Shown: positions 3,330 through 26,586 of the stretch, piece by piece
Numbering within the stretch: the stretch's first letter is position 1
Layout: the number at the start of each line of letters is the position of its first letter
IMG/VR virus record: IMGVR_UViG_3300009093_000042
Location: 64,001-101,913 of that record
Length of the DNA: 37,913 bases
Strand: one strand, 5' to 3'
DNA from: a virus
Lineage: Duplodnaviria; Heunggongvirae; Uroviricota; Caudoviricetes
Notes under the pieces: generated by a model
What the model was told of the DNA's origin: nothing
Seen by the model: only the letters and a program-made list of their open reading frames with translations
Database searches by the model: none
Program-made: the position numbers and the translations under genes

Positions 3330-3389
3330 ATTCGTTTTTAACTACCAAAAAGAACTGAAAGCTTCGTGGACAAATCCGTTCTATCTTCC

Positions 3390-3602
3390 ATGGCTGACAA
3401 GACGCTTAAAGAACATATCGTTTCCTTCCGAATCCCGAAGGACCAGGCCGCCGTGGTCGTGAAGATGCTGAAGGAGCAACCGATCATCGGCGTAAAATCT
3501 GTGAACCAGTTTTTCCGCAAGCTCGGAAGGGACTACCTCGCGGGCCGCATGTCCTATAAAAATCCCCAGGACATGCTCGTCGATACCGACATCAGTGGGT
3601 GA
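3390..3602 (+). CDS. Small ribbon-helix-helix-like DNA-binding protein
   Basis: HIVSFRIPKDQAAVVVKML..SVNQFFRKLGRDYL fits strand-helix-helix. Start moved to ATG 3390, preceded by GTTCT-N7. Confidence 0.55.
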   Translation: MADKTLKEHIVSFRIPKDQAAVVVKMLKEQPIIGVKSVNQFFRKLGRDYLAGRMSYKNPQDMLVDTDISG

Positions 3603-3921
3603 TGGGTTCGACCCGTTTGATGCAATGCGTCACCGGGTTTAGGTGGAATTCCACCATCATCGCGAAAGTGGACGGGCTTTCGTGATCAGCCACACGACAG
3701 GGGATTTTCAGTTTAATCGTTTCGGGATCGGCACTCTCAACAAGCACCAGGTCAGGACGTAATGGTTCTGGATGGTGCTTGACTGCTTCCTCCACGGTGC
3801 GCCGAAAGCAACCATGACGGCATTCCGATTGAATCCAGTCCAGCAGAGGAGGTTTGGGCACCTTTTCGTCTTCAATGAAGGTCCCGGCTATTTTCCGCAC
3901 GGTATCAGAAGGAGTACTCAT
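3592..3921 (-). CDS. Hypothetical protein, possible internal head protein
   Basis: ORF track, start moved to ATG 3921; DTVRKIAGTFIEDE resembles the motif shared by other small acidic proteins in the window. Confidence 0.6.
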   Translation of the reverse strand: MSTPSDTVRKIAGTFIEDEKVPKPPLLDWIQSECRHGCFRRTVEEAVKHHPEPLRPDLVLVESADPETIKLKIPCRVADHESPSTFAMMVEFHLNPVTHCIKRVEPITH

Positions 3922-4357
3922 ACTCGTCGCCGGGGAAGTCACTCGGCTTCAGCACGACCTCGACACCCAGGCGGGCCGAGCCATCTTTGGTGTAACGGGT
4001 CAGTTTTGGTTCCCGAGGAGCTGCAATCAGACGAATCAAAGGAGAAATCACTTCTTGGGGCAGACGCCGGAAGCAGAGCTGGAGATGGACCACGGAGTCG
4101 GGGTCTTGCTCGACCTCAACGTCAGGACGGTTTTCCTTTTCCTCCGGTTCCTCGTGGAATTCGCCGTCTTCGACCTGGTCGGTCGTCTCCGTGTCGATGC
4201 CAGGCTTGAACAGGCTTACGTCTTCGAGATTCGCCATCAACGCGGGCTGTGAATGAAGGCGCAGCATCAGCCGGTTGGCGTAAACGGCTATCTTCTTGTC
4301 GATGTTTGCGTCAGACACCTTTTCGATCAGGAGCCTGGCGAATTCTCGGTTAGTCAC
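3905..4357 (-). CDS. Hypothetical acidic protein
   Basis: 150 aa; GTG start preceded by TAGTTA-N4 and overlapping the upstream stop. Confidence 0.65.
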   Translation of the reverse strand: MTNREFARLLIEKVSDANIDKKIAVYANRLMLRLHSQPALMANLEDVSLFKPGIDTETTDQVEDGEFHEEPEEKENRPDVEVEQDPDSVVHLQLCFRRLPQEVISPLIRLIAAPREPKLTRYTKDGSARLGVEVVLKPSDFPGDEYEYSF

Positions 4358-4593
4358 GCTCTAACTACTTCACGCTTTTCAGCGTTTCGCTTGCGCAGAA
4401 AATAGCTGTTGAGCGCCGTCGCGAGGACACCCCTAAGCCAACTGTTGTTGATCTTGGGAGGGATACCGAAAAGCAACGGGTAATCGGCTGTGACTTCACA
4501 GACGACTTCGTTTCCCATTTGGATACTGCACAGCTTCACGTTATTAACTCTGCGTGTCTCACAGAACGAATTTGATCTGCCGTCTTTTCGCAT
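4354..4593 (-). CDS. Hypothetical protein
   Basis: 79 aa; fills the gap and is GTGA-coupled to the next gene; start uncertain. Confidence 0.45.
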   Translation of the reverse strand: MRKDGRSNSFCETRRVNNVKLCSIQMGNEVVCEVTADYPLLFGIPPKINNSWLRGVLATALNSYFLRKRNAEKREVVRA

Positions 4594-4645
4594 CCAAGGA
4601 TATTGAATCTTAATTCGCCACTACCGAAAATCGGTTCTACACCCT

Positions 4646-5692
4646 ATGCGTGTTTTGATTTATTCCGATGGTCAGGCCACAGACGGGCACGAGCGTTGCT
4701 TCACGCAGCCCGATAAGCCGCTCCAGTTGTGGAGGATCGAGCACCTTTACGCGGAGATTCAGCGCATCTATAACGAGCAGAAATGCGACGCTCTCTGGGA
4801 TTTGGGGGACACGACCGACGATCGTACGTCCATTCCTGTCTCCGTGATCGACCTGATGTGCGACGCCCTGGAGGCTTTTGACGGCAAATGGAACCTGAAG
4901 CTGGTCGGTAATCACGAACAATTTTTGCGGGACACCCGCATTCACGCAGGCAAGATGTTCCGTCATTTTTTCCATGTCGTGGATTCCTGCGAGACGATCA
5001 AGTGTGGAAAAGTAAACATTTTGTGCATCAGTTACCACGATGACGTGAACACGATCATCGACTTTCTGCGGCGCGCACCCAAGACCAAGCCGTGCGTGAT
5101 TATCGGCCATTTCCAGGTGGCAGGCTGCCAGATGAATTCCGGCGTGGCCGCTACCGGCGTCCCTCGCGAAATGCTGGAATTTGCCAACGTCGTTCTCCTC
5201 GGTCATATCCATAAACCGCAGTCGTTGGGGACCGGCTTCATCCATTACGTGGGATCACCGTTTCAGCAGAACTGGGGAGAATCTGGTGAGAATAAGCGCG
5301 TGGGAATCCTGGACATCACCGACGAGGCGATCCGGCTGGAGTGGGTGCCGCTGGAGGGTTTCCCGCGCTATCGCCAGGTCGGCTTTCAGGAGTTTTGCCA
5401 GCTCGTGAATGAGAAGTCGGAAGATCGCTATAAGGTCGTGCTGAACAGCCTGGATGAGACGGAGCAGTTCTACGCTCACCCGTTGTTTAACCGCGCTGAT
5501 GAGGCGATCTACGCTTACGACATTCCACCAGCAGACGCGCCCAAGGCGGATGAGCCGGTGACCACCATTCCGCGCAGCAAGCGGGACGTGCTCGTTAAGT
5601 ACATGGAAAAGTTTCCACCGGCTGTTTCAGGCATCCAGTTGGATAATGACGCCATGCTGGAGTTTGGAGAGTCGATCACAAATCATTTATGA
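4646..5692 (+). CDS. Recombination nuclease, T4 gp47/Mre11/SbcD-like metallophosphoesterase
   Basis: Motifs SDGQ (variant of DxH), LGDTTDD, GNHE, GHF, GHIH and YVGSPFQQNWGE. Confidence 0.9.
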   Translation: MRVLIYSDGQATDGHERCFTQPDKPLQLWRIEHLYAEIQRIYNEQKCDALWDLGDTTDDRTSIPVSVIDLMCDALEAFDGKWNLKLVGNHEQFLRDTRIHAGKMFRHFFHVVDSCETIKCGKVNILCISYHDDVNTIIDFLRRAPKTKPCVIIGHFQVAGCQMNSGVAATGVPREMLEFANVVLLGHIHKPQSLGTGFIHYVGSPFQQNWGESGENKRVGILDITDEAIRLEWVPLEGFPRYRQVGFQEFCQLVNEKSEDRYKVVLNSLDETEQFYAHPLFNRADEAIYAYDIPPADAPKADEPVTTIPRSKRDVLVKYMEKFPPAVSGIQLDNDAMLEFGESITNHL

Positions 5693-5940
5693 AACCGTGG
5701 TTATTAGCGTTGCCGTTGCTGCTCGCAGGCTGTGTGCCGTTCCAGTATCACGGCCAGAGCTATCATCTGATTCTTGGGGCGGGTCTCGTTCGAGTCACTG
5801 AGACCAACCAGGTGACAGTAGTGAAATCTCAGTCGCTCGGTCTGTACGTCGGGGACGGGCGCGCCAACCTGGGCCTGTCTCAGGTGTACGAGGCGAAAGT
5901 GCCGACCAACGCAAATGTCGTTCTTGAAGTTACGAAGTAG
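5689..5940 (+). CDS. Lipoprotein, beta-rich
   Basis: MKPWLLALPLLLAGC signal peptide with LAGC lipobox; ATGA-coupled to the gp47-like gene. Confidence 0.75.
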   Translation: MKPWLLALPLLLAGCVPFQYHGQSYHLILGAGLVRVTETNQVTVVKSQSLGLYVGDGRANLGLSQVYEAKVPTNANVVLEVTK

Positions 5941-5947
5941 CTAATTT

Positions 5948-6352
5948 ATGAAATCGCGCCATATTCTTCTCCTTTCAATCGTCGCCCTGCTCACGGGCTG
6001 CAAGGTACCGACCGCCGTGATCAGCAGCACTCAAACTTGTCTCGGGGTCAGCGTTCAGGAAAATCCAGCGACTCAGCTTTACGAAGCTCGCCTCGGGTAC
6101 GCTCGAAATGAGTTCGCTTACGTGCCAGGCAACACGAACTGTCCAACGTCTGTCCCCGACGTGATTCTGGAGCTGAAGGTGAATAACATTTTTGGCGGCG
6201 GCATGATCTATCAGCGCTTGGCCGTTGGCGCGGTCGCCTGTGCGCAACCGGGAGCGTCGCTGATGTTTTCCAAGGATTCCACCGGCAGTTTTGGAACCAA
6301 TTTGGTTCAGCAGCTCCCGCTTTTGTTTCCGAAAGCTCCGACCACGAAATAG
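5948..6352 (+). CDS. Lipoprotein, paralog of the upstream lipoprotein
   Basis: MKSRHILLLSIVALLTGC with LTGC lipobox; shares LG.SV..LG..VP.N.N..V.LE pattern with 5689..5940. Confidence 0.75.
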   Translation: MKSRHILLLSIVALLTGCKVPTAVISSTQTCLGVSVQENPATQLYEARLGYARNEFAYVPGNTNCPTSVPDVILELKVNNIFGGGMIYQRLAVGAVACAQPGASLMFSKDSTGSFGTNLVQQLPLLFPKAPTTK

Positions 6353-6492
6353 TAAACAATTTATTTCGCGGCCAATACGATTAAGTCTTAATTGTATTGG
6401 AAAACGAAGTGGAAATAAAAGTGCTTACGTGTGAATAAACACGCGCCCCAGGTCAGACCGAAGGGTGCTGAAAACAAAAACACAAGCACACT

Positions 6493-7110
6493 ATGAGCAA
6501 TCAAGCATCCGCAGTTCCGTTTGGAACAGACGCGACACGATTGGCCGGTTATGCAATGACCGCGAATGAGCGGTTGGGCGCAATCGACTTTTCGTTCTCG
6601 AATGAAGGTTCCATTCCGGCCTACATCAAGGTCATGGCCTACATCGGGCCGACGACGACTCCGTCCGGTTACGCCGACGTTCTCCCGCTCGACAGCGAAG
6701 CGATGAACAACGTCACGGCTAACCCGCCGTCGAGCGCGATCACCGGCTTTACCACGGTTGGACCGCCCTTCGTGGTTCAACCCAGGGGCACGATCACGCG
6801 CAGCTACAACCTGTTGACCAGCCGCATCGGCTTCTTCGGTTCGGGCATCGCGGGCAACGTGGTTCAGCAGCAGGCTCCGTACAACACGGTGCGTGTCAGC
6901 TCGACCATCGTCAACATCACCGCGATTCTCCGCAATCCTGGCAATTTGCGCGGCGCGCAGATCGACATCTCCCAGGTGGGTCGTCAGGGTTGGGGCTTCG
7001 ATCAGGCGTTCAATACGCCGAACCTCACGAAGAAATGGGGTTCCGTCAACACCACGACCGGTATCATCAATCCGGCAGGCAACAACTACAACGAGCCTGC
7101 GGCGTCTTAA
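6493..7110 (+). CDS. Probable virion structural protein (beta-sandwich, possible decoration protein)
   Basis: 205 aa rich in T/G/N/P; own A/C-rich leader and own terminator; aligns by eye with 13584..13937 and 22234..22755. Confidence 0.55.
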   Translation: MSNQASAVPFGTDATRLAGYAMTANERLGAIDFSFSNEGSIPAYIKVMAYIGPTTTPSGYADVLPLDSEAMNNVTANPPSSAITGFTTVGPPFVVQPRGTITRSYNLLTSRIGFFGSGIAGNVVQQQAPYNTVRVSSTIVNITAILRNPGNLRGAQIDISQVGRQGWGFDQAFNTPNLTKKWGSVNTTTGIINPAGNNYNEPAAS

Positions 7111-7131
7111 GTTTAGTCGCGGTATTCATCG

Positions 7132-7158
7132 AAGGCCGGGCGAGTGCCCGGCCTTTTT
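7132..7158 (+). terminator. Intrinsic terminator
   Basis: AAGGCCGGGC-GAGT-GCCCGGCCTT stem-loop followed by T tract, 21 nt after the stop at 7110. Confidence 0.85.
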
Positions 7159-7193
7159 CATTGCAATCTGGTCGTTTTACCGTTCTTTATGTC

Positions 7194-7811
7194 ATGCGCC
7201 AGATCGGTTTTATTGCCGCACAGGACGGCCAGGTCGTTAAGTACGATGCCAGCCTTCATTCACCCAAGCCGCGCCAGCCGTTGACGCGGCATCAGCGGGC
7301 CACTCTTTACTTCAAGGCGGTCCGGTTTATTCACAGGTTATTCCAGGAGGTTGGGTTCAGGGACATCACATTGGAAAATCACAGCTCATTCACCGCTGAG
7401 CTTGGCCGTTTTATTTTGGACATCACGGTGAAGGAGTCCAACTCGATGCCCATCGCGCACGTAACCAGCTATCCAGGTTACACCTATGACCCGGAGACTA
7501 TTCGCGCAAAGGTCACGGGATATTCTCTTGGTGAGCACGGCGAATACGTCATCCAGGTGGGAGCGGTGCTTCCGAACATGCGCAGCAGCCTGCCGACCTT
7601 CGTGGTTATTGACAAGGATTCGCCGAATCCGCTGAAGGACGCTTTCATGAACACGCTCGCGGCGGCAAAACAACTCATTCAGCAGGACCCAGAGACGCTG
7701 CGAAAAATTCAGGCAGCACTGGCGTCGCGCAACCTGGAAAAGGATTTCGAGAAGTTTAGCTCAGAGGACGATACTAGGCAGCTTCCCCGGACTTCTCAGG
7801 GAGCGGCGTGA
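7194..7811 (+). CDS. Hypothetical protein (205 aa)
   Basis: Track ORF 6990..7811 trimmed to ATG 7194, downstream of the terminator and preceded by GTTCT-N7. Confidence 0.7.
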   Translation: MRQIGFIAAQDGQVVKYDASLHSPKPRQPLTRHQRATLYFKAVRFIHRLFQEVGFRDITLENHSSFTAELGRFILDITVKESNSMPIAHVTSYPGYTYDPETIRAKVTGYSLGEHGEYVIQVGAVLPNMRSSLPTFVVIDKDSPNPLKDAFMNTLAAAKQLIQQDPETLRKIQAALASRNLEKDFEKFSSEDDTRQLPRTSQGAA

Positions 7812-7986
7812 AGACGGCGTCGAGGACTTTGCGCTGCCATTCCAGACAGCGCGGACAAGTGACGTGGGCGCAGATGGAGGAACTTTTCACGAAATTGATG
7901 TCCTCACCACAGGCAATTTTATGCCCTGGGCCGTCAGCATCTGCGCCCCGGTCGCGAACTTTTTGATGGATGATCTCGGTGCTCAC
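7774..7986 (-). CDS. Small His/Cys (possible zinc-binding) protein
   Basis: HKIACG..VTCPRC; GTGA-coupled to the co-chaperonin gene. Confidence 0.55.
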   Translation of the reverse strand: MSTEIIHQKVRDRGADADGPGHKIACGEDINFVKSSSICAHVTCPRCLEWQRKVLDAVFTPLPEKSGEAA

Positions 7987-8579
7987 TTCAGGGTCAGCGC
8001 GCCGTCGATGAATAATTGGTCCACGAAACAGAGTTCATCGTTGTCGATGACGATGGGGTTGACGCGACCACGGTGAGGAAAGACTTCCTGGCCAGCGTAC
8101 AGGTCGAGCTGAACGTCTTTGCCCATCTGCACCACACTGAAATGGGTGCTCTCCTTTTTGGCTTCTTCAGCAGTGTCAGGCACGATGATGATTTGATCCT
8201 TGGCTTTGCGCACCGTGGGGCGCAGCAGCGCGAAACGACCAGCAATGTGGAAATTTTCCAGCGCGATCACGTTTTTGTCGAGTTTGGCGATCACGTCGGC
8301 CACGTTCAAAAAGATGTGGATGACACCGCCGATTTCATGTGCAATCAATCCGGCTTGGTGCTGCGGGAGCTGGAACAGGACAATCTGTCCAGGCTGAAAT
8401 TCTTCCAGGGTGGATTCCCGGCCCTCGTAGCCGAATTTATCCAGACTTCCAGTGCATACGACTTCGGCGAGATCGTAGAGCTTGGACCGGCTGGCGGGCA
8501 GTTCGAGGCCGCCGCGCAGCTTGGCTTTTTCTTCGAGGCGTTTGACGGCTATTTTACCAGGAGCAAGTTTCAATTTCAT
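7983..8579 (-). CDS. groES: Tandem two-domain GroES/Cpn10 co-chaperonin (Cpn20-like)
   Basis: Domain 1: KIAVKRLEEKAKLRGGLELP..EVVCTG..FQPGQIVLF..IGGVIHIFLNVADVIAKL. Domain 2: IIIVPDTAEEAK..VVQMG..LYAGQEVF..IVIDNDELCFV. Each aligns by eye with GroES. Confidence 0.85.
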   Translation of the reverse strand: MKLKLAPGKIAVKRLEEKAKLRGGLELPASRSKLYDLAEVVCTGSLDKFGYEGRESTLEEFQPGQIVLFQLPQHQAGLIAHEIGGVIHIFLNVADVIAKLDKNVIALENFHIAGRFALLRPTVRKAKDQIIIVPDTAEEAKKESTHFSVVQMGKDVQLDLYAGQEVFPHRGRVNPIVIDNDELCFVDQLFIDGALTLK

Positions 8580-8597
8580 ATTTCTAAGAACAGGTCT

Positions 8598-8615
8598 TAA
8601 ATTGTTTACAATTTA
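8598..8615. promoter_or_regulatory. Operator-like inverted repeat TAAATTGT-TT-ACAATTTA, best copy of the dispersed WGTWWACW box
   Basis: Perfect 8-bp arms with 2-nt spacer, at the primase stop and upstream of the GroES gene. Confidence 0.6.
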
Positions 8616-9673
8616 TTTCCAGAGTGGGCTGCCACTCTCCGGCCATGGTCAGTTTCCGCGAGGTTGATTTTTACTTTTCTGGCTGTGGGTTTTGACCGGT
8701 TGTGGACCGCCGTGAGTCCGGCGATAACGTCGTCGTTTGCGTCGTTTGTTGTCCGAGCAGTACCATCAGGATTGATTCCCGGTGGCATGGCGGCCACGGT
8801 CATCGGCATGATCGAGTTGAGATTCAGAGCGGTTTCTTCGGCCAGGTGGGTCGAGTCGCTGTCGAACAACAGGCACCACTCTTTGACGTGCTTGTAGCGC
8901 AACATTTTGAACACCTGTGAGCGGGTGATGAAGTGGGTAAAGACGCATATCGGCATTGCGTATTCCAGGAGGTTTCCTTCACGCAGTTTCCGTTTCAGCG
9001 ACAGGTAGTTGAGGATGGATTCGACGATGATCACCAGTTCGATGGATGGGGTGCGCAGAGCGTCGAGGCCATAAATCCAGTAGCTGGCTCCGTACGGCAC
9101 GATTTTCTTGCTTGGGAATTTTTTGGTCTTGTCGAACCCTTCATCTGAGTACGTGCGTCCCTGGTAGTAAACCGTTCGCGGGCCTTCGCGCACCGGGAAG
9201 ATGCAGAATGGTTCCCACTCTCCTTCGCGGGTGAAACCGGCTCCGGCCTCCTCCAGGTCTTCGATGCCCAGGTGCTTGCGCTCAGCCATGTTTTTGCAGA
9301 ACTTCCAGTAACAGCTCTTTCGGTTTTCGATTAGCGGTAGGAACCCTGAAGGCAGTGGGACCTCTTGGATCGGAGTTAGAGCTTTTTCCGGCTTTTCCGC
9401 GAGGATTGTCCGCAGCTCGTCTGGCTCCAGGATGGCATTGTCTTCGAGGTCAATACCTAACAGGCGGAACAGGCTTTTTACGTGCCTCGGTTGAGTAGTT
9501 CTGCTGCAACGCCAGCAGTTTGTCCGCTGTGTCTTGAGGTTGATGGAGCGGTTACCGGTCAGGTCGCCACAGCCCGGCACCGGGCAGATGATCATCAATT
9601 CTTCACTGGTGGACCTCTCTTTGACCACTTGGAAGTTTGACGAAATTTCGATTTTAAGCCGGTCGGGACTCAT
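8606..9673 (-). CDS. DNA primase (zinc-binding domain plus TOPRIM; T4 gp61/DnaG-like)
   Basis: CPVPGC..NCWRC zinc ribbon, YYQGR, TOPRIM IIVES and LLFDSD motifs. Confidence 0.85.
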   Translation of the reverse strand: MSPDRLKIEISSNFQVVKERSTSEELMIICPVPGCGDLTGNRSINLKTQRTNCWRCSRTTQPRHVKSLFRLLGIDLEDNAILEPDELRTILAEKPEKALTPIQEVPLPSGFLPLIENRKSCYWKFCKNMAERKHLGIEDLEEAGAGFTREGEWEPFCIFPVREGPRTVYYQGRTYSDEGFDKTKKFPSKKIVPYGASYWIYGLDALRTPSIELVIIVESILNYLSLKRKLREGNLLEYAMPICVFTHFITRSQVFKMLRYKHVKEWCLLFDSDSTHLAEETALNLNSIMPMTVAAMPPGINPDGTARTTNDANDDVIAGLTAVHNRSKPTARKVKINLAETDHGRRVAAHSGNKL

Positions 9674-9689
9674 CAGTAGTTAGAACGTT

Positions 9690-9878
9690 ATGGATTTGAA
9701 TCAACACATTGATACGGCTCAGCAGTTCGCCGGAAATCAGCAGAAGCTCAGCATGGAACAGGACAACGCCAATAAGACTGCCTTCGCGCTGAGAATGATC
9801 GAACGCCTGCCGCAGGAGCCTACGGCTTCGGAGCCGCCGAAAATCCCTTCACTGGGCGCGCTGGCGATTCCGAACTAG
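9690..9878 (+). CDS. Hypothetical protein (62 aa)
   Basis: ORF divergent from primase across a 16-bp gap containing TAGTTA. Confidence 0.5.
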   Translation: MDLNQHIDTAQQFAGNQQKLSMEQDNANKTAFALRMIERLPQEPTASEPPKIPSLGALAIPN

Positions 9879-9934
9879 GGAAGTAGGTCCAGTCGTCGAG
9901 GGTCACGACAAGCTTTGGTCGCCCAAGCAGGCGA

Positions 9935-10657
9935 TTAGTTCCCTGATTTAACTTGGAGGATGTCTTCAGCGTAGAAGATGGACTCAATCTGCAAGAGTTT
10001 GGCTGATTCATAGGTCAGTTCAGTTGTCTTGAAAGAACTGAGCCAGCAGTTTACCAGTCGGAACCTCAAAGAGTATTCCAGATCGTTTGACACGGCTTCC
10101 GAGGCGGTACGGAAAGAAGTGGCCGTGGACGCCGGTGTCACCTGTGGGTTGGAGGACCCGCGCAGGAAATTCACTCGGACATCGAAGGCATAATTCATCG
10201 AGTAATTTTCGTTCAGGGTGATGGCGTACTCGCTAGACATCTGTCCGCGCCCGGCGCGCACCACGGCGCGCCAAGCTTCCAGCATCTGGTAAAGGTCAGA
10301 CTGAAATGGGTTTACCGCGCTGCCACCGGTTTTGTAGCAGTCCAGCCAGAAGACCACGCGGATCGCGTCGAGCGGATCGTCCCAGGACGGCATCTGGTAG
10401 GGCCGGGAATCTCTCCTGACCGGCTCTGCGCGCACTTTGAGTTCTGGCATGGAGACCGAGGCCGCGTAGTAGGTGGACAGCTTCATCGGCACGTACGGCG
10501 CTGTTACGCCGGTGCTCATGGCCCCGGTGTCAGTCAGAGTGGAATCCAAATTGGCGAGCACGTGGTTGAAGTCAATCACCCAGAGGTCTGAGCGTTGAGC
10601 GTCAACGCCTTTTTCCCGGCCCCAGGTGTTGATCTGGTCATTGATAATTCTCGCCAT
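9935..10657 (-). CDS. Tail-tube-like baseplate protein (gp19/gp54-type paralog)
   Basis: N-terminus MAR..NTWG..DAQRSDLW matches the tube gene MAR..NTFG..DLQRQDLF; SVSMPEL and LVNCWLSSF..LTY are tube-fold motifs. Confidence 0.75.
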   Translation of the reverse strand: MARIINDQINTWGREKGVDAQRSDLWVIDFNHVLANLDSTLTDTGAMSTGVTAPYVPMKLSTYYAASVSMPELKVRAEPVRRDSRPYQMPSWDDPLDAIRVVFWLDCYKTGGSAVNPFQSDLYQMLEAWRAVVRAGRGQMSSEYAITLNENYSMNYAFDVRVNFLRGSSNPQVTPASTATSFRTASEAVSNDLEYSLRFRLVNCWLSSFKTTELTYESAKLLQIESIFYAEDILQVKSGN

Positions 10658-10661
10658 GCAG

Positions 10662-10667
10662 TAACTA
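10662..10667. promoter_or_regulatory. Strand-symmetric TANNTA element, putative late promoter serving two divergent genes
   Basis: CAT-gcag-TAACTA-cgtt-ATG: exactly 4 nt from each start codon. Confidence 0.6.
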
Positions 10668-10671
10668 CGTT

Positions 10672-11787
10672 ATGGACTTAAACGCGACATTTTGCGGAAC
10701 AGTCGAGGATAATAAAGACCCTGAAAAACTGGGCCGTTTGAAAGTCCGTGTCCCGTTGGTCTATGGCTGCGTGGGTGGATTTTTCGGTGCGATCACGACA
10801 AATGACCTTCCATGGGCGCTTCCAGCCGGTCTTCCGAATGGTCTCAGCCAGCAAAGCGGCGGCGCTGACTGGACACCTGAGATCGGGGACCAGGTGCTTG
10901 TCCGTTTTCTTGACGGCGAGCCGGAGAAACCGATCTGGGAGTGGTTCATGCAGACGCAGGCCGCCGCTGAGGACTTCCAGCTTCATGCCTATAACACCAA
11001 CGCCAATGGCAGCGTAGGCGGTCCCAAGCGTGGGGCCTGGGTGCGCTACGGCCACACGCTGGAGTGGAACAAGGACGGCGTGATCATGACCACCAGCAAG
11101 GGTTATCGCGTGCTCTTGACGGATGCGAGCAGCGCTGGAAACGATGGCGACATCACCATTGAGACCCAGGCAGGCCAGTTCCTGGAGTTTGACGATTCGG
11201 TCAATGGCGGCACGATGAACGTCAACGAGGACTTCCAGATGAACATCGGGAAGCAGCTCCTGGCTCTGTGTGACAGCATCAGCCTTCAGTCCCAGGGAAA
11301 TGAGATCGAGTTCATCAGTGGAAAATACCTCTCCATCGAGACTCAGACTGATCTCAAGGGCACCGTCCACCAGGACTGGACCATGGGCGTGGACGGGAAA
11401 ACGAATTTTACGCTGACTGGTGATTATGCCTTGACCGGTTCAGGCAAGGTCTCGATGTCGGCGGCGGCAGACCTGGTGCTCAGCTCCACCCAGAATACCA
11501 CCATTAAAGCTACAGGCACGCTCGGGATCAGCAGCGCGGCCCAGATGAATATCCAGTCTCAGATCGACATGAATCTGGCGTTTACCCGGTTGGTGCTCGG
11601 CCAGGGAGCGTCTTCGCCGTTTGTTTTGGGAGACCAGTTGCTGGCGTATCTCGAACAAATGGTGACCATTCTGCTGACGCACACGCACACCGGCGTTACC
11701 TCGGGCGGCAGCAGCACCGGTCCCATGGTGCCTCCACTGACACTGCCGACGCCTGCCTTGCTCAGCCAGATTATCGTCGGAAAATAG
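10672..11787 (+). CDS. Baseplate central spike (gp5/gpV/VgrG-like OB fold plus beta-helix)
   Basis: GTVEDNKDPEKLGRLKVRVP and PEIGDQVLVRFLDGEPEKPIW OB-fold motifs; C-terminal HTHTGVTSG apex motif. Confidence 0.9.
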   Translation: MDLNATFCGTVEDNKDPEKLGRLKVRVPLVYGCVGGFFGAITTNDLPWALPAGLPNGLSQQSGGADWTPEIGDQVLVRFLDGEPEKPIWEWFMQTQAAAEDFQLHAYNTNANGSVGGPKRGAWVRYGHTLEWNKDGVIMTTSKGYRVLLTDASSAGNDGDITIETQAGQFLEFDDSVNGGTMNVNEDFQMNIGKQLLALCDSISLQSQGNEIEFISGKYLSIETQTDLKGTVHQDWTMGVDGKTNFTLTGDYALTGSGKVSMSAAADLVLSSTQNTTIKATGTLGISSAAQMNIQSQIDMNLAFTRLVLGQGASSPFVLGDQLLAYLEQMVTILLTHTHTGVTSGGSSTGPMVPPLTLPTPALLSQIIVGK

Positions 11788-11815
11788 TTTACAAAGTTTT
11801 TCCGTTCTACTCGCT

Positions 11816-12670
11816 ATGCCGTTTCAATCGAAATTAAAAGATTTGAGGCCGCGCAGGTTGCAGTTCCAAAAGCGCATCACACTGCTCTCGCACGGATTCA
11901 CCAAGCCCGATTCGTTTCCGAACGGGGAAATCACGGTCTTTCCGTGGGATACTGACGTTGACGACTGGTTGTTCGAGCGCATGAAGAAAGGCGACCAGCA
12001 CATGGTCATGTACGACATGGCCGCCAAAGTGTGCGATCTAAACGGCTGCCCGCTGGACAACTTCATCGTCGGCGACATAAGCACGGTGCTCCTGGTCTCG
12101 CGGTCGTTGCGCTACAACAGCGTGATCGAATACGATGCCGAGTGCCCGCATTGTAGCTTCAAGTCGTTCGAATCCATCCGGGTTCCTGACGAGCTTGGGC
12201 GCATTGGCGAAAAGTCTGCGGACTATCCCGGCTTTGATGAGATCACTTTGCCGGATTGTCAGGACGTGGTGCGAATCCGCCCGCTGCGCGTGCGCGATGA
12301 ACGCAATATCTCCGACCGCGATGAGGCTTCCCGCGCCATGATGACGGACCATGTGGCGCGCATCTTGACTGGTATCGTCACGATCAACGAAGGCACACCT
12401 TCAGCCCTGGAGGAAGTGCTGCGCTGGTGGCAGGCAATTTCACCGCGTGATTGCGCCTTCCTGGAATCAGAGCAAAAACGGTTGTCGCCGGTACTCGACT
12501 CGGACATCCCGCATGTCTGTGATCGGTGTTCGAAGAAATTCGTACACACGATAGAATTCAGCAAAGACTTTTTTCGTCCGAGCCTCAAGCCAGTCCAAGG
12601 AAATAAGGTTGAAGCAGATGTTCGACCTGGCCTGGAACAGCGAGGGGCGACTGACATTCAATCTAAGTGA
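11816..12670 (+). CDS. Baseplate hub/tail assembly chaperone (T4 gp26-like)
   Basis: GDISTVLLVSRSLRY..AECPHC..RIRPLRVRDE..HVCDRC..EFSKDFF fits gp26-type chaperones, which end near FF. Confidence 0.7.
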   Translation: MPFQSKLKDLRPRRLQFQKRITLLSHGFTKPDSFPNGEITVFPWDTDVDDWLFERMKKGDQHMVMYDMAAKVCDLNGCPLDNFIVGDISTVLLVSRSLRYNSVIEYDAECPHCSFKSFESIRVPDELGRIGEKSADYPGFDEITLPDCQDVVRIRPLRVRDERNISDRDEASRAMMTDHVARILTGIVTINEGTPSALEEVLRWWQAISPRDCAFLESEQKRLSPVLDSDIPHVCDRCSKKFVHTIEFSKDFFRPSLKPVQGNKVEADVRPGLEQRGATDIQSK

Positions 12671-12752
12671 CGTGCCCGACCGCTATCTGGACTTGGTCGT
12701 CGAATGGGCGAACGAGCGGATAGAGGCGGAAAACGAGCAGGCAAAGGCATGA
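12618..12752 (+). CDS. gp51-like chaperone segment (separate small gene or frameshift extension of the gp26-like gene)
   Basis: Not in the ORF track. MFDLAWNSEGRLTFNLSDVPDRYLDLVVEWANERIEAENEQAKA; its TGA overlaps the next ATG (ATGA 12749-12752). Confidence 0.65.
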   Translation: MFDLAWNSEGRLTFNLSDVPDRYLDLVVEWANERIEAENEQAKA

Positions 12753-13937: not shown

Positions 13938-13940
13938 AAA

Positions 13941-15902: not shown

Positions 15903-15907
15903 AAATC

Positions 15908-18127: not shown

Positions 18128-18216
18128 AACAAGTCGTCTTCTCTTTTATTTACTCCCCGTGACTGCCAAATCTTCGGCCCGTTTTTGTAAACATTATTCG
18201 TTGTCTGCTTCTCATC

Positions 18217-19257: not shown

Positions 19258-19294
19258 ATCCTAAATAGGGCGACGACCGCGAATAACCGCGAGA

Positions 19295-19573: not shown

Positions 19574-19586
19574 GCTATTATTTAAC

Positions 19587-20575: not shown

Positions 20576-20594
20576 ATTGTAACTAGCTTAGAAC

Positions 20595-20891
20595 ATGAGA
20601 TCGCCCGAACTGGAACAACTCATAACGGAACTACGAGCGGAAAACCCTGTCAGCCACGTTGTCACCAATGCTGACAGCAAGGTGGTGGTCATCATCGAGG
20701 AGACAAATGAGCGCCTGGAGTTCAAAGCGGACGAGTGCCGGTTGATCCTGAGCAGCGCCGACACGGTACGTCGTTTGTTCGACGCCCTGGATTACCCGGA
20801 GGAGACGTTTGTGGAATTTTACGGTATCGAGGTCGATCCTGATGTCATGTCCGAGCTGGAGGATTTCGCGTCCAGCGTGGATGAAATGTAA
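20595..20891 (+). CDS. Hypothetical acidic protein
   Basis: 98 aa ORF divergent from the neck gene across a 19-bp gap. Confidence 0.6.
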   Translation: MRSPELEQLITELRAENPVSHVVTNADSKVVVIIEETNERLEFKADECRLILSSADTVRRLFDALDYPEETFVEFYGIEVDPDVMSELEDFASSVDEM

Positions 20892-20893
20892 TT

Positions 20894-22237
20894 GTGGCTG
20901 TTACCTCTGCCAATCAAAACGTCGAAGGACGCGTTGTCGTCGATGTGGAGCTGTGGCTGCCCAATAACAAGTTTGTGCCGTTCAGCAGCCTGAGCGTCAT
21001 CCACGTGAAGTCGGTCATCGAGGAGTCGGTGAAAGGAACCAGCACCCACGAACTTTTTGTGCGCGCCCCGACGACGGATTACGTGGACAGCGTTATCCGG
21101 GCTGCCCAGTCTCAGGGATCGCCTTTTGTCCGCTATCGTATCGGCATCGGTCTTCCCGGCCAGATGTCCTACCTGCCGTGGCAGGATATGATCCTGCCTG
21201 ATTTTAGCGCGCCGATTGAGGGTGTTGGAAAAACAGCGGGTCACTTCGTCAGGATGATGCTGAAAGATAATTTGTTTACTTTTTCTCGCGCCACCAAAAC
21301 TGCCGCCCGGCGCGGACTGGTGAGCGACGTGGTGAAGCAGATCGCAAGTGAGAATCAGATCGCGAACACGGTCATCGAGCCTACGGTCGGCCAGGGCCTG
21401 TGGATTCAGAGCTTTGTGGACGACGTGGACTTTATCCGTACGCGCATGGTGCCACGCGCCATCAACGCCAAAGGCCGAGGGGCCTACAATTTTTATTTTC
21501 AGGATGGCGCGCTACACTTTCACACTCCCGACTACCAGGCGCAGCTCAAAGACCTGGTTTATTACCAGGTGGATAATTTCGGTCTCACGCAGCTTGACGA
21601 AACCCAGAACATGCTGGAGTTCGGCGCTTCAAATGTGCGCGTGGTGACCTATGATCCGTACACTGCCACTTTTGGAGAAATCGTTTCTGACCCTACGAAG
21701 TCACTTCGCCTGGGGAACGTGCTGACACCGGTAGCCAGCGTTCAAGGGGCGGAGTTGAACTATCCCTTTCACCTGAGCACGAACACCGCCCAGGAAGCAT
21801 CGAACCTTGCTCAGGCGATTTATGACAATGCGAGGATGCAGACGCTCGGTTTGAAGATCGACATTGCGCGTTCCATTTTCCTTCGGGTTGGTGACCTTGT
21901 GCAGGTGACGATCAGTCCGTCGCAGTCGAAAAACAGCGTCTGGTCCGGGGTCTATTTTGTGACCAATGCGTGTTACACCATTGAGAGTGGCACGCTGATT
22001 TCCAACTTCGTGGTGAAGCGTGGAGAGTTCCAGACTGATTCCATGAGTCCCGCGCAGGTCAACATTCTGGGGGACAATCTGGTGCTGAACAATCAGCAGG
22101 CTCCGGGGCAGCCGCTGAATGTGAAAGGGGTCGAAAGCTCGGTGCTGACGCACGGTGCCGGACAAGCAGGATACACTTCGATCTTCGTACAGACTCAGGA
22201 CCCGAACGCAGCGCCGAACCCAAATCCGGCGCTTTAA
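20894..22237 (+). CDS. Baseplate hub protein (gp27/late control D-like)
   Basis: VSDVVKQIASEN, QSFVDDVDFI, YNFYFQDGALHFH, LRVGDLVQV and WSGVYFVTNACYTI are typical of the hub fold. Confidence 0.8.
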   Translation: MAVTSANQNVEGRVVVDVELWLPNNKFVPFSSLSVIHVKSVIEESVKGTSTHELFVRAPTTDYVDSVIRAAQSQGSPFVRYRIGIGLPGQMSYLPWQDMILPDFSAPIEGVGKTAGHFVRMMLKDNLFTFSRATKTAARRGLVSDVVKQIASENQIANTVIEPTVGQGLWIQSFVDDVDFIRTRMVPRAINAKGRGAYNFYFQDGALHFHTPDYQAQLKDLVYYQVDNFGLTQLDETQNMLEFGASNVRVVTYDPYTATFGEIVSDPTKSLRLGNVLTPVASVQGAELNYPFHLSTNTAQEASNLAQAIYDNARMQTLGLKIDIARSIFLRVGDLVQVTISPSQSKNSVWSGVYFVTNACYTIESGTLISNFVVKRGEFQTDSMSPAQVNILGDNLVLNNQQAPGQPLNVKGVESSVLTHGAGQAGYTSIFVQTQDPNAAPNPNPAL

Positions 22238-22755
22238 GAAGTCGGGAACGGAGGAGGAGCCACCACGCCGCCAGAGATGAACTTCTGGTTCCAAAGCTGA
22301 GGCGCAAAGAATGGATCGCTCTTGTCGTAGGCCATTTCTTCGAACTTCAAACGAGCAGCCAGTTGAGCGCGGATGTTGCCACCACCACCGGTGCATTTGA
22401 TTTCGACGAAAGGCGCATTGACGAAGAAGTCGATCGTACGCCGACCGCCAGGAACGATGCTGTATTCAGCCGAGATAGGAGTGCGTGTACCGGAGGAACC
22501 GTCATCCAGCGATTGCTGAATTTTGAAAAAGATCGTGGTTCCGTTGAACGTCAAGCCGGTTGCCGGAGGGAAGGCGACGTTCTCGATCATCAGGTGAACC
22601 TGGTTGTCGGGATTCGTCGTGGCTGCGGCGACCGTGAGGTTCGTGCCAAAGGCATAGTCGGCGATGCGCAGACGGCTGCCAACATAGCCGGACACCATCG
22701 GGGCCTGGACAAACGTTGTCCTTAGCAGTGGCTCTGGATATGCGCCTGGGTCCAT
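22234..22755 (-). CDS. Probable beta-sandwich structural protein
   Basis: LMIEN..IFFKIQQS..SIVPGGRRTIDF..FVEIKCTGGGG aligns with 13584..13937 and 6493..7110. Confidence 0.6.
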   Translation of the reverse strand: MDPGAYPEPLLRTTFVQAPMVSGYVGSRLRIADYAFGTNLTVAAATTNPDNQVHLMIENVAFPPATGLTFNGTTIFFKIQQSLDDGSSGTRTPISAEYSIVPGGRRTIDFFVNAPFVEIKCTGGGGNIRAQLAARLKFEEMAYDKSDPFFAPQLWNQKFISGGVVAPPPFPTS

Positions 22756-22759
22756 AGTA

Positions 22760-24082
22760 TTACTCCACGCCGGAGGTTACGGGCATCGGGCGTTTGCCCG
22801 GTTGAAATTCTTCGTCGGCATCCTCGCTGGTCCCTTCGTTGCCGTCGTGCGGACCTTCGTCGCCTTCGTCTTCTTTGGGCAAGTCAGGAACCTCACCGCC
22901 TTCCGCACCTTCTTCAGAAACCAGCTCGGCGAGCAGGTCGCGGATTTCGCGCAGGAGGCTGAGCGCGGCGTTGTCTTCGGTCGAAGCGCCGATGGCACTA
23001 TCCGACACCGGTGGCTCGATTGGCATGTCCTCGCCATTCGGTGGCGGCATTTCGCCCATGCCGTCCATGGGACTTTCACCGCTCACGATTTCTTCCTCCA
23101 TCTCCTCCACGATTTTGATCGCGCCGGTAACGACTTTGGATTCCTGCAAGTTCAAAGTTTTCATGTTCGTCGTATTATCTACACTCTCAATGTTCAAGAT
23201 TCGTTTAGGTGTTTTACTGTCCATCATCGCATAGGCACCGTGCGGGAGAGGTCCGGGCGGTTTAACCGTAGGCTTTGATGGTTTCATTACCGTGGACTTA
23301 GTTTTCGGGGCGGGTTTCTTTACCGGCTTGACCACTGGCGGGCGCTTCGCAGGCTTCTCTCCAGGCAACGGTGGAGGCTCGTCTGCATCAATCGCATTGA
23401 TGGGTTGATTCTGTCGTTCAGGCGGTAATCCAATGTTTCTGCGGGCTTTAGCAGCCGCGATTTTCGCGTCTCTTTCACGCGCTTTTTCCATCTCCTGATC
23501 GAAGTTGAGCCAGCGGCGGGTGGCGCGCTTGGTGAGCCGGTCGAGCTTCTGCGTGTCGCCTACCCAGGGCGGAAAACCAGAGAGCAGGCCGTAAATGTAG
23601 TCCCGCGTAGCTAAAATATGTTTACAAAGTCCAGGTGCGCCTTTTGGATTTGTCTGGCGCGGGGCGCGGTTGATGCACTGATTTAAGGAATTGGCTCCAA
23701 TGGGACCGGCTGAACGCTGGTGGTTCGCCCAGGCCCACCGGTAGCGATAGTCCGGGCACATGCAATCAACTTCGACCGGCAGCTTGGAGAGCGGCGTGTT
23801 CTTGTGCGCGTGGCTGCGCTTGGGTTTTTTGAAGCGGACGTAGCCCTTATGGCGCAGGCCAGTTGTGGACGGATTCCCTTTGGCGTTGAAATAGTATTCG
23901 AAGGCCCAGTGCTGGCCGGTCTGGTACTGCTGCATGTCCAGCGGCGGCATCTTGACCGTCAGTGAGCGGTGGTAGCGCTTTGGCTCAGACATGCGGAAAA
24001 GCTGATCGTACGTCAGAACCTCCAGAATCACTTCCGGCAATTCTTCCGCAGCCATCAGCTCCTCAAAAGTCATCGAGCGCAT
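22760..24082 (-). CDS. SWIM zinc-finger protein with long disordered P/K-rich and acidic tail
   Basis: VEVDCMCPDYRYR..LCKHILA is a SWIM CxC..CxH motif. Confidence 0.75.
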   Translation of the reverse strand: MRSMTFEELMAAEELPEVILEVLTYDQLFRMSEPKRYHRSLTVKMPPLDMQQYQTGQHWAFEYYFNAKGNPSTTGLRHKGYVRFKKPKRSHAHKNTPLSKLPVEVDCMCPDYRYRWAWANHQRSAGPIGANSLNQCINRAPRQTNPKGAPGLCKHILATRDYIYGLLSGFPPWVGDTQKLDRLTKRATRRWLNFDQEMEKARERDAKIAAAKARRNIGLPPERQNQPINAIDADEPPPLPGEKPAKRPPVVKPVKKPAPKTKSTVMKPSKPTVKPPGPLPHGAYAMMDSKTPKRILNIESVDNTTNMKTLNLQESKVVTGAIKIVEEMEEEIVSGESPMDGMGEMPPPNGEDMPIEPPVSDSAIGASTEDNAALSLLREIRDLLAELVSEEGAEGGEVPDLPKEDEGDEGPHDGNEGTSEDADEEFQPGKRPMPVTSGVE

Positions 24083-24612
24083 TATTCAGGAGAATCAGAT
24101 TTTCCGCTCAGGTAGTCCCACTCATCTTTTTTCAGTGGGCCGGGGCTATACCACTTTTTCTTCTTTTCCCGTTTGGTTTCTTTGCGCGGTTCCAGTGTCC
24201 GCTCTCCGAAAATAACCTCGCGGGCGGGGAGTTCCTTGGGTTCTTTGAAAACGTCATCACTCCACAGAACGGCGCTGTCAGGCATGATGCCAAAGCTGCG
24301 GCGCAATCGGTCAGTAAATGGCAGCGGCAGGCGGTTGATGTAGTTCACGCTCCAGCAGAGAGTGGACCCTTCGTGATCGCGCACGACCGCCACCAGGCCG
24401 TAGTTGCGCAGGTACTCGTTCAGGGCGTTGTCAGGGAATTTGAGCACCAGGCGCGGCAGCTCGATTCCTTTCTCCTCGGACAGAAGTTTGAAAAACTGGG
24501 AGAAGATGTAACCCCCGCTGTCGTCAGTGAAAATGCCACCATCCCGCGTCATGCGCGGGACGTAGAACAGTCCTATTGACCCGGTTGATTTTGATTTTCC
24601 GCGACCAAGCAT
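24082..24612 (-). CDS. Hypothetical protein
   Basis: 176 aa; TAATG-coupled to the SWIM gene and preceded by TATTTA-N5. Confidence 0.65.
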   Translation of the reverse strand: MLGRGKSKSTGSIGLFYVPRMTRDGGIFTDDSGGYIFSQFFKLLSEEKGIELPRLVLKFPDNALNEYLRNYGLVAVVRDHEGSTLCWSVNYINRLPLPFTDRLRRSFGIMPDSAVLWSDDVFKEPKELPAREVIFGERTLEPRKETKREKKKKWYSPGPLKKDEWDYLSGKSDSPE

Positions 24613-24636
24613 CGCCTTAAATACGTTCTCTTGGTC

Positions 24637-26586
24637 ATGGCTGACCTCAAGATCAAGAGCATCAAGATCAGGAACTGGATGACCATCCGGGAAGCGGACA
24701 TCGCATTCCCCGAGAAAGGGTTAATCCTGGTCCTCGGATCGAACCTGGCTTCTGACGGAAAAATGCAGAGTGTCGGCTCAGGAAAAACCGGTCTCGGGGA
24801 GGCACTGTCCATCGCACTGGCCGGAGTAAAAGGACGTTACGGAGAGTTTGGTCACTACGCGGAAGATCGCGGCGGGAAGGACATGTACGTGAAGGTGGAG
24901 TCCAGCCTGCTGGCCAAGCCGCTGACGGTGGAGATGGGTTTCAAATGCGCGGAACTTTCGAAGACCGGTGAGGGTCTGAAGTTCACGTACGCGGACAAAC
25001 CTTCGGTTCAGCGCGGCGACCCAGACCAGACGCGGCGCGAGCTTCAACGCATGATTCGTGTGACGCCGGAATTGGCCAACTGGACAGTGTTTCTCAGTGG
25101 CGTCCGGTTGAACTTCGACAAAATGTCTCAGGATAATTCCGTGAATTTGCTGATGTCAGCTCTGGCGCAGCCGCCTTGGACAGAATACTTCGAACTAGCG
25201 AAGGCTAAGCTTCAGGCAGCTAACCGTCAGTTGGCGGTTTCAGCCCAGGCTCTGGAATCAGCCCGGATGCGCGAAAAGAATGCTGCGGATGATCTCAGCG
25301 ACGCGGTCGAGGAGCACAAACAGGCTCAGGAAGATTATCAGCGCCAGTTGGAACAGCAGTCGGACCGTCTCGCGGAACTGAAGCGCCAGAACGGTGCGGA
25401 CCTTTCGGCGATCTCAGGGGCCGAAAAGGAAATGACGAAAATAAAGAAGCAGCTCGCGCTCCTGGAGGAGCAGAAGGCGACGCAGAATCATCAGTGGGAA
25501 ATCCAAAAACAGAACCTGCGGGATGACCTGGCAGAGCTGGATGAGAAGCGATTGACGGCGGCGGAAAAGCGCACGGAGGCGAACAGCAAGTATAACGATC
25601 TGGATGATCAGCTCGCCAAGATGAAGAAGGTGCCAAAGAATTGTCCCACCTGTAAAAAACCATGGGATAAGGCGCACAGCGAGGAGGAGTTAGCGAAGAT
25701 GGAGGAAGCTTTGGAAAAGGCCGGTAAGGTCTGTGACCAGGCCGACAAAGTCTATTCTGACATCGACAAAAAGCGCCGGGAGATCAACGACAAGATCGGT
25801 CAAATCGAGCAAAAGATGCGGACCCAGGGACACGTTGCCGATGTGCGCCATCTGGGTGATCTTTATACGGCCCAGGAACGACTGATCCGAAATCTGAACA
25901 CTTCGATCCATGAGCGCGAGTTGAAAATTGTGAAGCTGGCGGACGGGGTTGACAAAAGTTTTGTAAACAAAAAATCGGCTGTCGTTGAGGAGAGGACGCG
26001 GGCGCTGGCGAAAGCCAAGGAGGCGATTGAAACATCGGCTTCTGATTTGGCGATGGACGAGGAGGTCGTCAAAGCGGTGCAATACTGGTACCGGGCCTAC
26101 GGACCGACCGGCATCCCGAATATGATTTTGAGTGAGGCTATTCCGCTGATGAATCGCGTGGCGCGCCGCATTTCAGCCATGATGACCGGAGGCACGCTGG
26201 AGATCAACTACTCGACGACAAAGGTCCTGGCGTCCGGGGAATCGCGCCAGAAGCTCATTACGAAGGTGAACAACCGCATCGGTAGCAAGCGGTCAGAAGG
26301 AAGCTCAAACGGCGAGGGCGGTCTTACGAATTTGATCATTGCTGAAAACCTCAATGAGATCGGACAGGTTTCGAACCGCGTCGGGTTCCGCTGGTACGAC
26401 GAGATCACCAACGGCCAGGACTCCGTGGTGCGCCGCAGCATTTTTGCCTACCTGAAGGAAGTGGCCGAACGTTTGGGCATCCTGGTGTTCGTTGTGGACC
26501 ACCATCCTGAAGTGGCCAGCTTTGCGGATTACGTGCTCGTGGCCGAGAAGTCCAGGGAGCACGGTACCCGCTATTTCTGGCGCTAG
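24637..26586 (+). CDS. Recombination ATPase, T4 gp46/Rad50/SbcC-like
   Basis: Walker A G.N..GSGKT, coiled coil with CPTC zinc hook, SSNGE signature, WYDE Walker B and VVDH switch; start at ATG 24637. Confidence 0.92.
   Translation: MADLKIKSIKIRNWMTIREADIAFPEKGLILVLGSNLASDGKMQSVGSGKTGLGEALSIALAGVKGRYGEFGHYAEDRGGKDMYVKVESSLLAKPLTVEMGFKCAELSKTGEGLKFTYADKPSVQRGDPDQTRRELQRMIRVTPELANWTVFLSGVRLNFDKMSQDNSVNLLMSALAQPPWTEYFELAKAKLQAANRQLAVSAQALESARMREKNAADDLSDAVEEHKQAQEDYQRQLEQQSDRLAELKRQNGADLSAISGAEKEMTKIKKQLALLEEQKATQNHQWEIQKQNLRDDLAELDEKRLTAAEKRTEANSKYNDLDDQLAKMKKVPKNCPTCKKPWDKAHSEEELAKMEEALEKAGKVCDQADKVYSDIDKKRREINDKIGQIEQKMRTQGHVADVRHLGDLYTAQERLIRNLNTSIHERELKIVKLADGVDKSFVNKKSAVVEERTRALAKAKEAIETSASDLAMDEEVVKAVQYWYRAYGPTGIPNMILSEAIPLMNRVARRISAMMTGGTLEINYSTTKVLASGESRQKLITKVNNRIGSKRSEGSSNGEGGLTNLIIAENLNEIGQVSNRVGFRWYDEITNGQDSVVRRSIFAYLKEVAERLGILVFVVDHHPEVASFADYVLVAEKSREHGTRYFWR

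Follow-up and report, generated by a model that had tools for sequence, protein, structure and literature searches.

Introduction

Late promoters of bacteriophage T4 carry TATAAATA at -10 and are read by gp55, a protein of 185 aa, with gp33 and the gp45 clamp. T4 middle promoters combine a MotA box at -30 with a sigma-70 -10 element and are used with MotA and AsiA. Promoters of extracytoplasmic function (ECF, group 4) sigma factors, which have sigma regions 2 and 4, consist of a GGAAC-type -35 element located 16–17 nt upstream of a CGT, GTC or GTT -10 element. In the leaderless-gene promoters of Actinobacteria, Deinococcus-Thermus and Thermus phages, the host TANNNT -10 element lies 6–7 nt before the start codon. 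Here we analyze the pentamer GTTCT, which stands 7 or 8 nt before start codons in the final 37.9 kb (37,913 nt, hereafter the window) of the IMG/VR contig IMGVR_UViG_3300009093_000042 (G000; 101,913 bp, GC content 55.6%, 45% complete according to CheckV), from an uncultured soil phage of about 240 kb. The signal is genuine, position-fixed, strictly conserved and clade-wide. Judging from sequence patterns, it is probably the -10-only core promoter of a phage-specific, middle-type class of genes with leaderless or nearly leaderless messages. The GTTCT class is not a new kind of system, since the kind is known from T4 late and leaderless-gene promoters; its consensus, its strictness and its pairing with translation lacking Shine-Dalgarno (SD) sites are new. 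A search of the literature for GTTCT as a promoter, sigma or leaderless signal found no such report, and a broader search returned known phage systems only.

Megablast of 10 kb against cultured phages gave no match, and the capsid protein shares only about 30% identity with its nearest cultured counterparts, those of Bacillus phages HSE3 and SP-15, Listeria phage LIS04 and Maribacter phages. About 50 related loci (L numbers) were gathered by SbcD and capsid searches, and six related genomes were read whole or largely: G001 (238 kb, 96% complete), G002, G006 (230 kb, with terminal repeats), G007, G009 and G010. The clade includes dozens of near-complete genomes of 200–245 kb that carry up to about 40 tRNAs. 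Positions given below are those of the window unless the contig, a genome or a locus is named.

A pentamer at a fixed distance from start codons

GTTCT-N7-ATG occurs seven times in the window against 1.12 expected, a count that none of 100 shuffles reached. The pentamer as such is not over-represented (68 copies, 74 expected); position alone is enriched. An earlier note on this DNA had listed seven box genes, six with a spacer of 7 nt and one, the primase gene, with a spacer of 8 nt. The coordinates of all seven hold (Table 1), and five of them (ATGs at 3390, 7194, 9673, 11816 and 24637) have the extended form CGTTCT. The remaining N7 match, at 29608, is probably the single match expected by chance, and a GTTCT at 9298 is either a chance copy or marks an internal start of the primase gene.

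On the whole contig, every 5-mer was tested at offsets 0 to 30 upstream of each ATG heading a reading frame of 60 codons or more, giving 31,744 pairs. GTTCT at offset 7 ranks first among these, with 11 sites against 0.9 expected (Poisson P = 3.5e-9); the positional enrichment that the earlier note had proposed as a check is present on this contig. Five more sites are found at offset 8, and an additional one precedes a GTG start at contig 56695(-). The same test returned TCCGT at offset 10, TAAAC at 24 and TAGTTA words at 4–5. Out of 186 GTTCT copies on both strands of the contig, 38 are intergenic (15 expected, intergenic DNA making up 8% of the contig), and about 17 of these 38 lie 7–9 nt before a start codon.

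The enrichment extends to the relatives. GTTCT at offset 7 is also the top pair in G006, G009 and G010 and is sixth in G007; in G001 and G002 the enrichment is spread across offsets 7–10. Based on about 780 kb of pooled related DNA, offsets 7, 8, 9 and 10 hold 46, 26, 26 and 18 sites, respectively, in total 116 against 24.9 expected, and none of the 15 single-mismatch variants of the pentamer rises above 1.6-fold. In five further genomes GTTCT-N7-ATG was counted 84 times versus 20 for a reversed-pattern control.

Anatomy of the box and start-site signature

Position matrices were built from 17, 31 and 18 sites. The pentamer is invariant in them and is directly followed by A or T, rarely C. Upstream there is a slight preference for C at -2/-1 of the box and a weak preference for A/T at -5 to -3 (0.4–0.8 bit per position). 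The matrices contain no -35-like box, no conserved position from -40 to -6 of the box and no second half-site, and a sigma-70 consensus scan found no promoter at the GTTCT sites. With the A of ATG taken as +1, GTTCT occupies -12 to -8, the -10 geometry that the earlier note had described.

At N7 sites the base before the ATG is a pyrimidine in 43 of 46 cases and C in 28 of 46, whereas C precedes the ATG at 65 of the 263 other called starts (Fisher test, P = 2.5e-6). At N9 and N10 sites the seventh base after the box is C in 21 out of 44 and the eighth a purine in 31 out of 44. Because the C-purine pair, the signature to be expected at a transcription start, occupies the same bases after the box at these longer spacings, it tracks the box rather than the start codon. 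The patterns recur in a largely independent set of genomes (C before the ATG at 33 of 57 N7 sites; at N9, C at the seventh base in 8 of 19 and a purine at the eighth in 13 of 19), and in that set the C sits one base further on at N8 and N10. This indirect evidence fits a transcription start at the eighth or ninth base after GTTCT, which would make messages leaderless at N7 and N8 and give them 2-nt leaders at N9 and N10. The earlier note had placed the start at the A of the ATG. The position relative to the box is in agreement with this, but the relatives, with spacings of 7–10 nt, would have many leaders of 2–3 nt.

A ribosome-binding site does not fit into the spacer of 7–8 nt. SD-like 4-mers are no commoner before genes than inside genes in G000, G001 and G002, and thus we conclude that the clade translates without SD pairing. 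GUUCU itself has no complementarity to the anti-SD sequence, for which a GGAGG core would be expected.

The places in which the box is found call for re-initiation of transcription. An intrinsic terminator hairpin with a T-run lies upstream of the box of the gene at 7194, and in the orthologues of this gene in G001, G002 and L022 the T-run of a strong hairpin directly abuts GTTCT. Several boxes come directly after tRNA genes, and in divergent gaps two outward-facing boxes are 3–14 nt apart. Directly beside the SbcC box lies TAAATA, which on the opposite strand reads as the TATTTA box of the divergent gene 24612(-), and the primase box shares bases with TAACTA, whose reverse complement is the TAGTTA box facing gene 9690(+); in the primase orthologues of L012 and L015, GTTCT is followed directly by TAACTA and is 10 nt from the ATG. 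In G002, TTGACG-N17-TACAAA and then GTTCT precede a tRNA-Met (35107–35133; L036:15107–15133), with exactly 7 nt between GTTCT and the mature 5' end, and GTTCT also lies 6 nt before a tRNA-His (28343). These two cases are weak evidence that the signal is independent of translation.

Divergent start codons only 14–24 bp apart were observed at 9674–9689, 10658–10671, 20576–20594 and 24613–24636. The close gaps of the window share one TANNTA hexamer or hold an abutting pair of TAAATA and CGTTCT, and promoters in gaps of this size must overlap almost completely.

Conservation across the clade

The box is kept in 11 of 21 orthologues of G000 box genes versus 2 of 61 for other genes, and it is retained while the sequence around it diverges between orthologues. 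The SbcD gene keeps the box in 8 of 11 related loci with differing flanks, and the small gene at 3390 keeps it at 7–9 nt in L012, L015, L017, L021, L022, G001 and G002. Upstream of the GroES gene (8579) the box is at 8 nt in both G001 and G002, and the SbcC orthologue of G002 has GTTCT-N7-GTG. The orthologue of the hub-like gene at 11816 retains the box at 10 nt in G001; in G002 it has no box, and GGAGG is found in its place. Genes can also switch class, as the G001 orthologue of the helicase gene has an early-type box instead of GTTCT.

Genes served and other start-signal classes

The G000 genes preceded by the box encode SbcD, SbcC, primase, an SF2 helicase, an endonuclease VII-like protein, GroES, a GT9 glycosyltransferase, the hub-like protein (11816), which is followed by a 5'-3' exonuclease/FEN gene at 12704, an immunoglobulin (Ig)-domain protein and small proteins of unknown family. 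Those of G001 and G002 include the family-A DNA polymerase (PolA, in both), a UvrD-like helicase, two methyltransferases, a TSCPD protein and again GT9. The description of the class as replication, recombination or chaperone genes in the earlier note is therefore right in the main. Its further claim that none is a virion gene does not strictly hold, because the gp26-like gene (11816) matches a baseplate-hub family and an Ig/Hoc-like gene outside the window has the box. The functional split between box classes is real but not absolute.

As that note had also proposed, GTTCT is a separate, position-fixed and strand-specific signal that matches neither the TTGACA/TACATT nor the TAKTTA-N4 class. 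Compared with GTTCT, the class TAKTTA-N4-ATG (consensus G-TA(G/T)TTA, 36 sites, no -35) differs in sequence, in distance to the ATG (4 versus 7–8 nt) and in its gene set, and no fixed link between the two boxes was found when one was sought. TAKTTA genes with a family match encode a baseplate wedge protein, a tail fibre and a gp5-like hub. Most proteins of this class have no match in PHROGs, so the contrast between gene classes rests on few annotated genes. The early TGT(AA/TT)ACA / TTGACA-N16-17-TACATT class and the TANNTA-N4-ATG class likewise abut start codons, a layout maintained across the clade.

An early-type GTWWAC box is near just 19% of GTTCT sites. At eight sites (two in the window and six more in G000–G002), the GTWWAC core of a GT(AA/TT)ACA box lies 11–12 nt upstream of GTTCT. 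The early-type promoter would then start transcription at GTTCT or immediately before it, an arrangement suggestive of an early and a middle promoter in tandem. GTTCT was also observed 0–6 nt upstream of a TAGTTA box, at 3351–3355(-), 20590–20594(-) and contig 38015–38019(+). These pairs serve genes 3329-, 20575- and contig 38029+, with a further instance in the primase orthologues of L012 and L015, and may combine a middle and a late promoter in tandem.

The capsid and sheath genes have neither a GTTCT nor a TAKTTA box and show longer, A/C-rich leaders. Such leaders of 20–50 nt, with CAACAACAACAACA and ACCACCTAACC repeats, were found before the capsid gene and some others, at 35843–35894 and at contig 24372–24405 and 12661–12729. 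The genes behind them lack an SD site as well as all three boxes, and with such leaders translation may start in a fourth, leadered manner.

Candidate reader

The relatives encode a conserved protein of 335 aa that belongs to the sigma-70 family (G002 57298–58305, equal to L037:17298–18305; G001 228406–229428). It is present as a single copy in every near-complete relative (G001, G006, G007 and G009), where a second copy was not found, and its gene is absent from the incomplete (45%) G000 contig. The protein has weak matches to phrog_234, the gp55 family (E = 1.2e-4 and 0.009), and its C-terminal, helix-turn-helix (HTH)-like part weakly matches the Mor-type activator family phrog_836, with PF08765 on one homologue. 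Among 291 metagenomic homologues, one carries the name sigma-24 family protein in its source. The top 50 PDB matches of the AlphaFold model (predicted local distance difference test score 78.5) are all sigma factors. Residues 18–119 superpose on sigma region 2, as in 4lup (sigma-E region 2 with the -10 strand; Z 11.5, root-mean-square deviation 2.2 over 91 residues). Pfam Sigma70_r2 and phrog_12791 had no match in three genomes. Weak matches to Sigma70_r4_2 were rejected as sigma factors, as they belong to non-conserved HTH or HNH proteins.

The most economical candidate for the reader of GTTCT is host core polymerase together with this single sigma-70-family protein of the clade. In G001 its gene lies in a cluster that starts behind an early-type box, a position that fits a factor made early. 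The earlier note had called for a phage sigma or ECF factor; a protein with a sigma fold was found in the relatives and not on the G000 contig, and its pairing with GTTCT is putative. A more specific proposal, that GTTCT(W) is the full recognition element of this protein, with no -35, an ECF-like GT in the -10 and a start on or within 2–3 nt of the start codon, is possible and would amount to a novel pair of sigma and promoter, yet we hold it only tentatively.

Comparison with described promoters

Like T4 late promoters, GTTCT is a short and strict -10-only element, has no -35 and is scattered inside gene clusters. If the candidate is right, the two would also share a phage-specified reader of the sigma family, given the weak match of the relatives' protein to the gp55 family. 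Unlike the T4 element, GTTCT is unrelated to the TATAAATA-like A/T octamer and contains G and C, and no A/T variant of it is enriched. It serves replication and recombination genes rather than virion or lysis genes, in phages with a family-A replicase in which a gp45-type clamp (phrog_223) had no match at E ≤ 1 (G000, G001 and G002). The candidate also differs from T4 gp55 in length (335 versus 185 aa) and in having the HTH-like C-terminal part. The better analogue of T4 late promoters in G000 is the TAKTTA-N4 class.

With T4 middle promoters the GTTCT class shares its replication and recombination genes and often an early promoter just upstream, but there is no -30 box and no TAnnnT -10. MotA and AsiA (PF09158, PF09010) had no match at E ≤ 1 in three genomes, one of them the 96%-complete relative, although very divergent analogues could escape such a search. 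The analogy with ECF promoters drawn in the earlier note stands in part. GT is found at -12/-11 of the presumed -10, and the best single-domain structural match of the candidate is sigma-E region 2 on the -10 strand. In contrast to ECF promoters, there is no -35 box at any spacing, the C before GTTCT is not conserved in the relatives, and the candidate lacks a Pfam Sigma70_r2 match. In layout the class also resembles leaderless-gene promoters, in which a -10-type box likewise stands 6–8 nt before a start codon lacking an SD site, with transcription and translation starting at nearly the same base. Here, however, the box is GTTCT instead of TANNNT and is specific to a class of phage genes.

Interpretation and alternatives

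We favour GTTCT as a -10-only promoter. In this mechanism the core -10-type element of promoters without a -35 would be GTTCT, which has a short A/T-rich stretch in front of it and often A or T behind it. The box would be where RNA polymerase opens the DNA, with transcription starting at the eighth or ninth base downstream. In G000 (N7 and N8) the start base would be the A of the start codon and the message leaderless; in relatives with N9–N10 it would have a leader of 2–3 nt. Leaderless or nearly leaderless messages would be workable because the clade, and presumably its host, uses no SD sites. The class would be of middle or delayed-early type, between the host-type TTGACA-N16/17-TACATT promoters and the TAKTTA-N4-ATG promoters of tail and baseplate genes, since its genes, a few aside, function in DNA replication, recombination, repair or modification. 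The box itself is observed, along with its strictness, position, conservation and context; we infer its action as a promoter on DNA, the start point, the timing and the reader.

Several observations weigh against this interpretation. About a fifth of the counted sites are expected background. A strict pentamer that tolerates no mismatch is unusual for -10 elements. Spacing in the relatives ranges from 7 to 11 nt; moreover, the box lies 30 nt from the ATG in the G001 primase orthologue and, in one case in G000, 38 nt from the ATG at contig 41948, so its link to the start codon is not invariable. In the second genome set, a pyrimidine precedes the ATG in 77% of cases, which equals the general gene-start level of 76%, and only the preference for C is distinct. 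The tRNA-Met case is a single example. Finally, one sigma cannot read both GTTCT and TAKTTA, and a single sigma gene therefore cannot alone explain two phage-specific -10-only classes.

GUUCU could act in RNA instead, as a translational operator or enhancer or as a processing site in the short leader of messages started upstream, which we consider unlikely. A range of 7–10 nt is the usual spacing of ribosome-binding signals, another start signal could exist in a clade without SD sites, and the target genes form a functional regulon like that of RegA, whose sites in T4 are translational operators. At the eight sites with an early-type box, a start at or just before GTTCT would moreover put the pentamer in the transcript. 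Most sites, however, have no recognizable upstream promoter, and the box abuts terminators, sits in divergent gaps of 16–24 bp and is found 7 nt before a tRNA gene. GUUCU is not complementary to the anti-SD sequence, and the C-purine signature at N9–N10 goes with the box and not with the ATG. It is less probable that GTTCT is the start-site or discriminator region of a host sigma-70-type promoter whose -10 is the A/T stretch upstream, with a leader of 7–12 nt. The A/T-rich stretch at -5 to -3 of the box, the occurrence of TAAATA, GAAAAT and GTTTTA 2 nt before GTTCT and the early-type boxes at 11–12 nt would agree with it. Nevertheless, the information is almost wholly in GTTCT, with 0.4–0.8 bit per position in the A/T stretch, the sigma-70 scan is empty at these sites, and we know of no discriminators this strict.

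Slightly less probable again is a site for a phage or host regulator, for example a half-site of the LexA/Cheo type (GAAC-N4-GTTC), that would switch a replication and repair regulon and not be a promoter. GTTC is the half-site of several LexA boxes, the genes served would suit such a regulon, and inverted AGAAC...GTTCT pairs exist. These pairs are, however, divergent genes each with its own box, at variable spacings of 3–25 nt; single sites have no second half-site, and strict strand orientation with a fixed distance to the ATG is unexpected for an operator. Chance or a coding artefact is very improbable. The test is open to such effects, as AGGAG directly before ATG in G006 and G010 came from the same test and was rejected as an in-frame Lys/Glu-Glu-Met codon effect. 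The GTTCT sites are intergenic, in 66% of them the ATG is the first of its frame or close to it, versus 31% for other ATGs, and the P value of 3.5e-9, about 1e-4 after correction, is replicated in six further genomes. Based on the enrichment, the intergenic location, the further genomes and the first-ATG share, this explanation was rejected.

If GTTCT is a promoter, the expression programme of a large clade of uncultured soil jumbo phages would be readable from sequence. Genes would be sorted into classes by three short boxes, each at a set distance from the start codon, allowing timing-based annotation of the roughly 60% of genes that have no family. The strict pentamer and the conserved sigma-like protein form a clean pair for in vitro work, and they raise questions about the recognition of -10-only promoters and about the translation of leaderless or 2-nt-leader messages in bacteria without SD sites. 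Should the pairing of GTTCT(W) with the sigma-like protein be true, the whole replication regulon of a phage of about 240 kb would be expressed as leaderless messages in a host without SD sites.

Features of the window and its relatives

Table 1 Boxes and associated elements in the window
Feature	Position	Strand	Context
GTTCT box	3378..3382	+	7 nt before ATG 3390; small protein of 70 aa, no family match
GTTCT box	4634..4638	+	7 nt before ATG 4646; SbcD/gp47-like nuclease
Intrinsic terminator, hairpin and T-run	7134..7158	+	Upstream of the box at 7182
GTTCT box	7182..7186	+	7 nt before ATG 7194; conserved open reading frame of 205 aa without family
GTTCT box	8587..8591	-	7 nt before ATG 8579; GroES/Cpn10-like protein of 198 aa
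Early-type box GTAAACA	8603..8609	-	GTAAAC core 12 nt upstream of the GTTCT ending at 8591
GTTCT	9298..9302	-	8 nt before in-frame internal ATG 9289 of the primase gene
GTTCT box	9682..9686	-	8 nt before ATG 9673; DnaG/Toprim-type primase of 355 aa
Early-type box GTTTACA	11787..11793	+	GTTTAC core 11 nt upstream of the GTTCT at 11804
GTTCT box	11804..11808	+	7 nt before ATG 11816; baseplate-hub-like protein of 284 aa
GTTCT box	24625..24629	+	7 nt before ATG 24637; SbcC/gp46-like protein
GTTCT-N7-ATG	29608..29612 (whole match to 29622)	+	Antisense within a gene for a 769-aa protein

The structural genes of the window encode the tail sheath, the major head protein, the prohead protease and gp5-like and gp26-like hub proteins. 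Its other genes include those for SbcC, SbcD, a DnaG-type primase, a FEN-type exonuclease and a double GroES.

Pieces of the sigma gene occur on only two short contigs (L125 and L126) in peat metagenome-assembled genomes labelled Flavobacteriales and Verrucomicrobiota. The binning is probably wrong, and no host can be named from so weak a hint. As its replicase, this "T4-like" clade has a family-A DNA polymerase of 1,100 aa (G001 175087–178419; G002 7942–11232) and not a T4-type family-B enzyme. In G002, ARAGORN called a transfer-messenger RNA at 35386–35811 (L036:15386–15811) with an unusual tag of 33 residues ending in ELAVA; about 39 tRNA genes lie in its neighbourhood, and G001 has 23 tRNAs.

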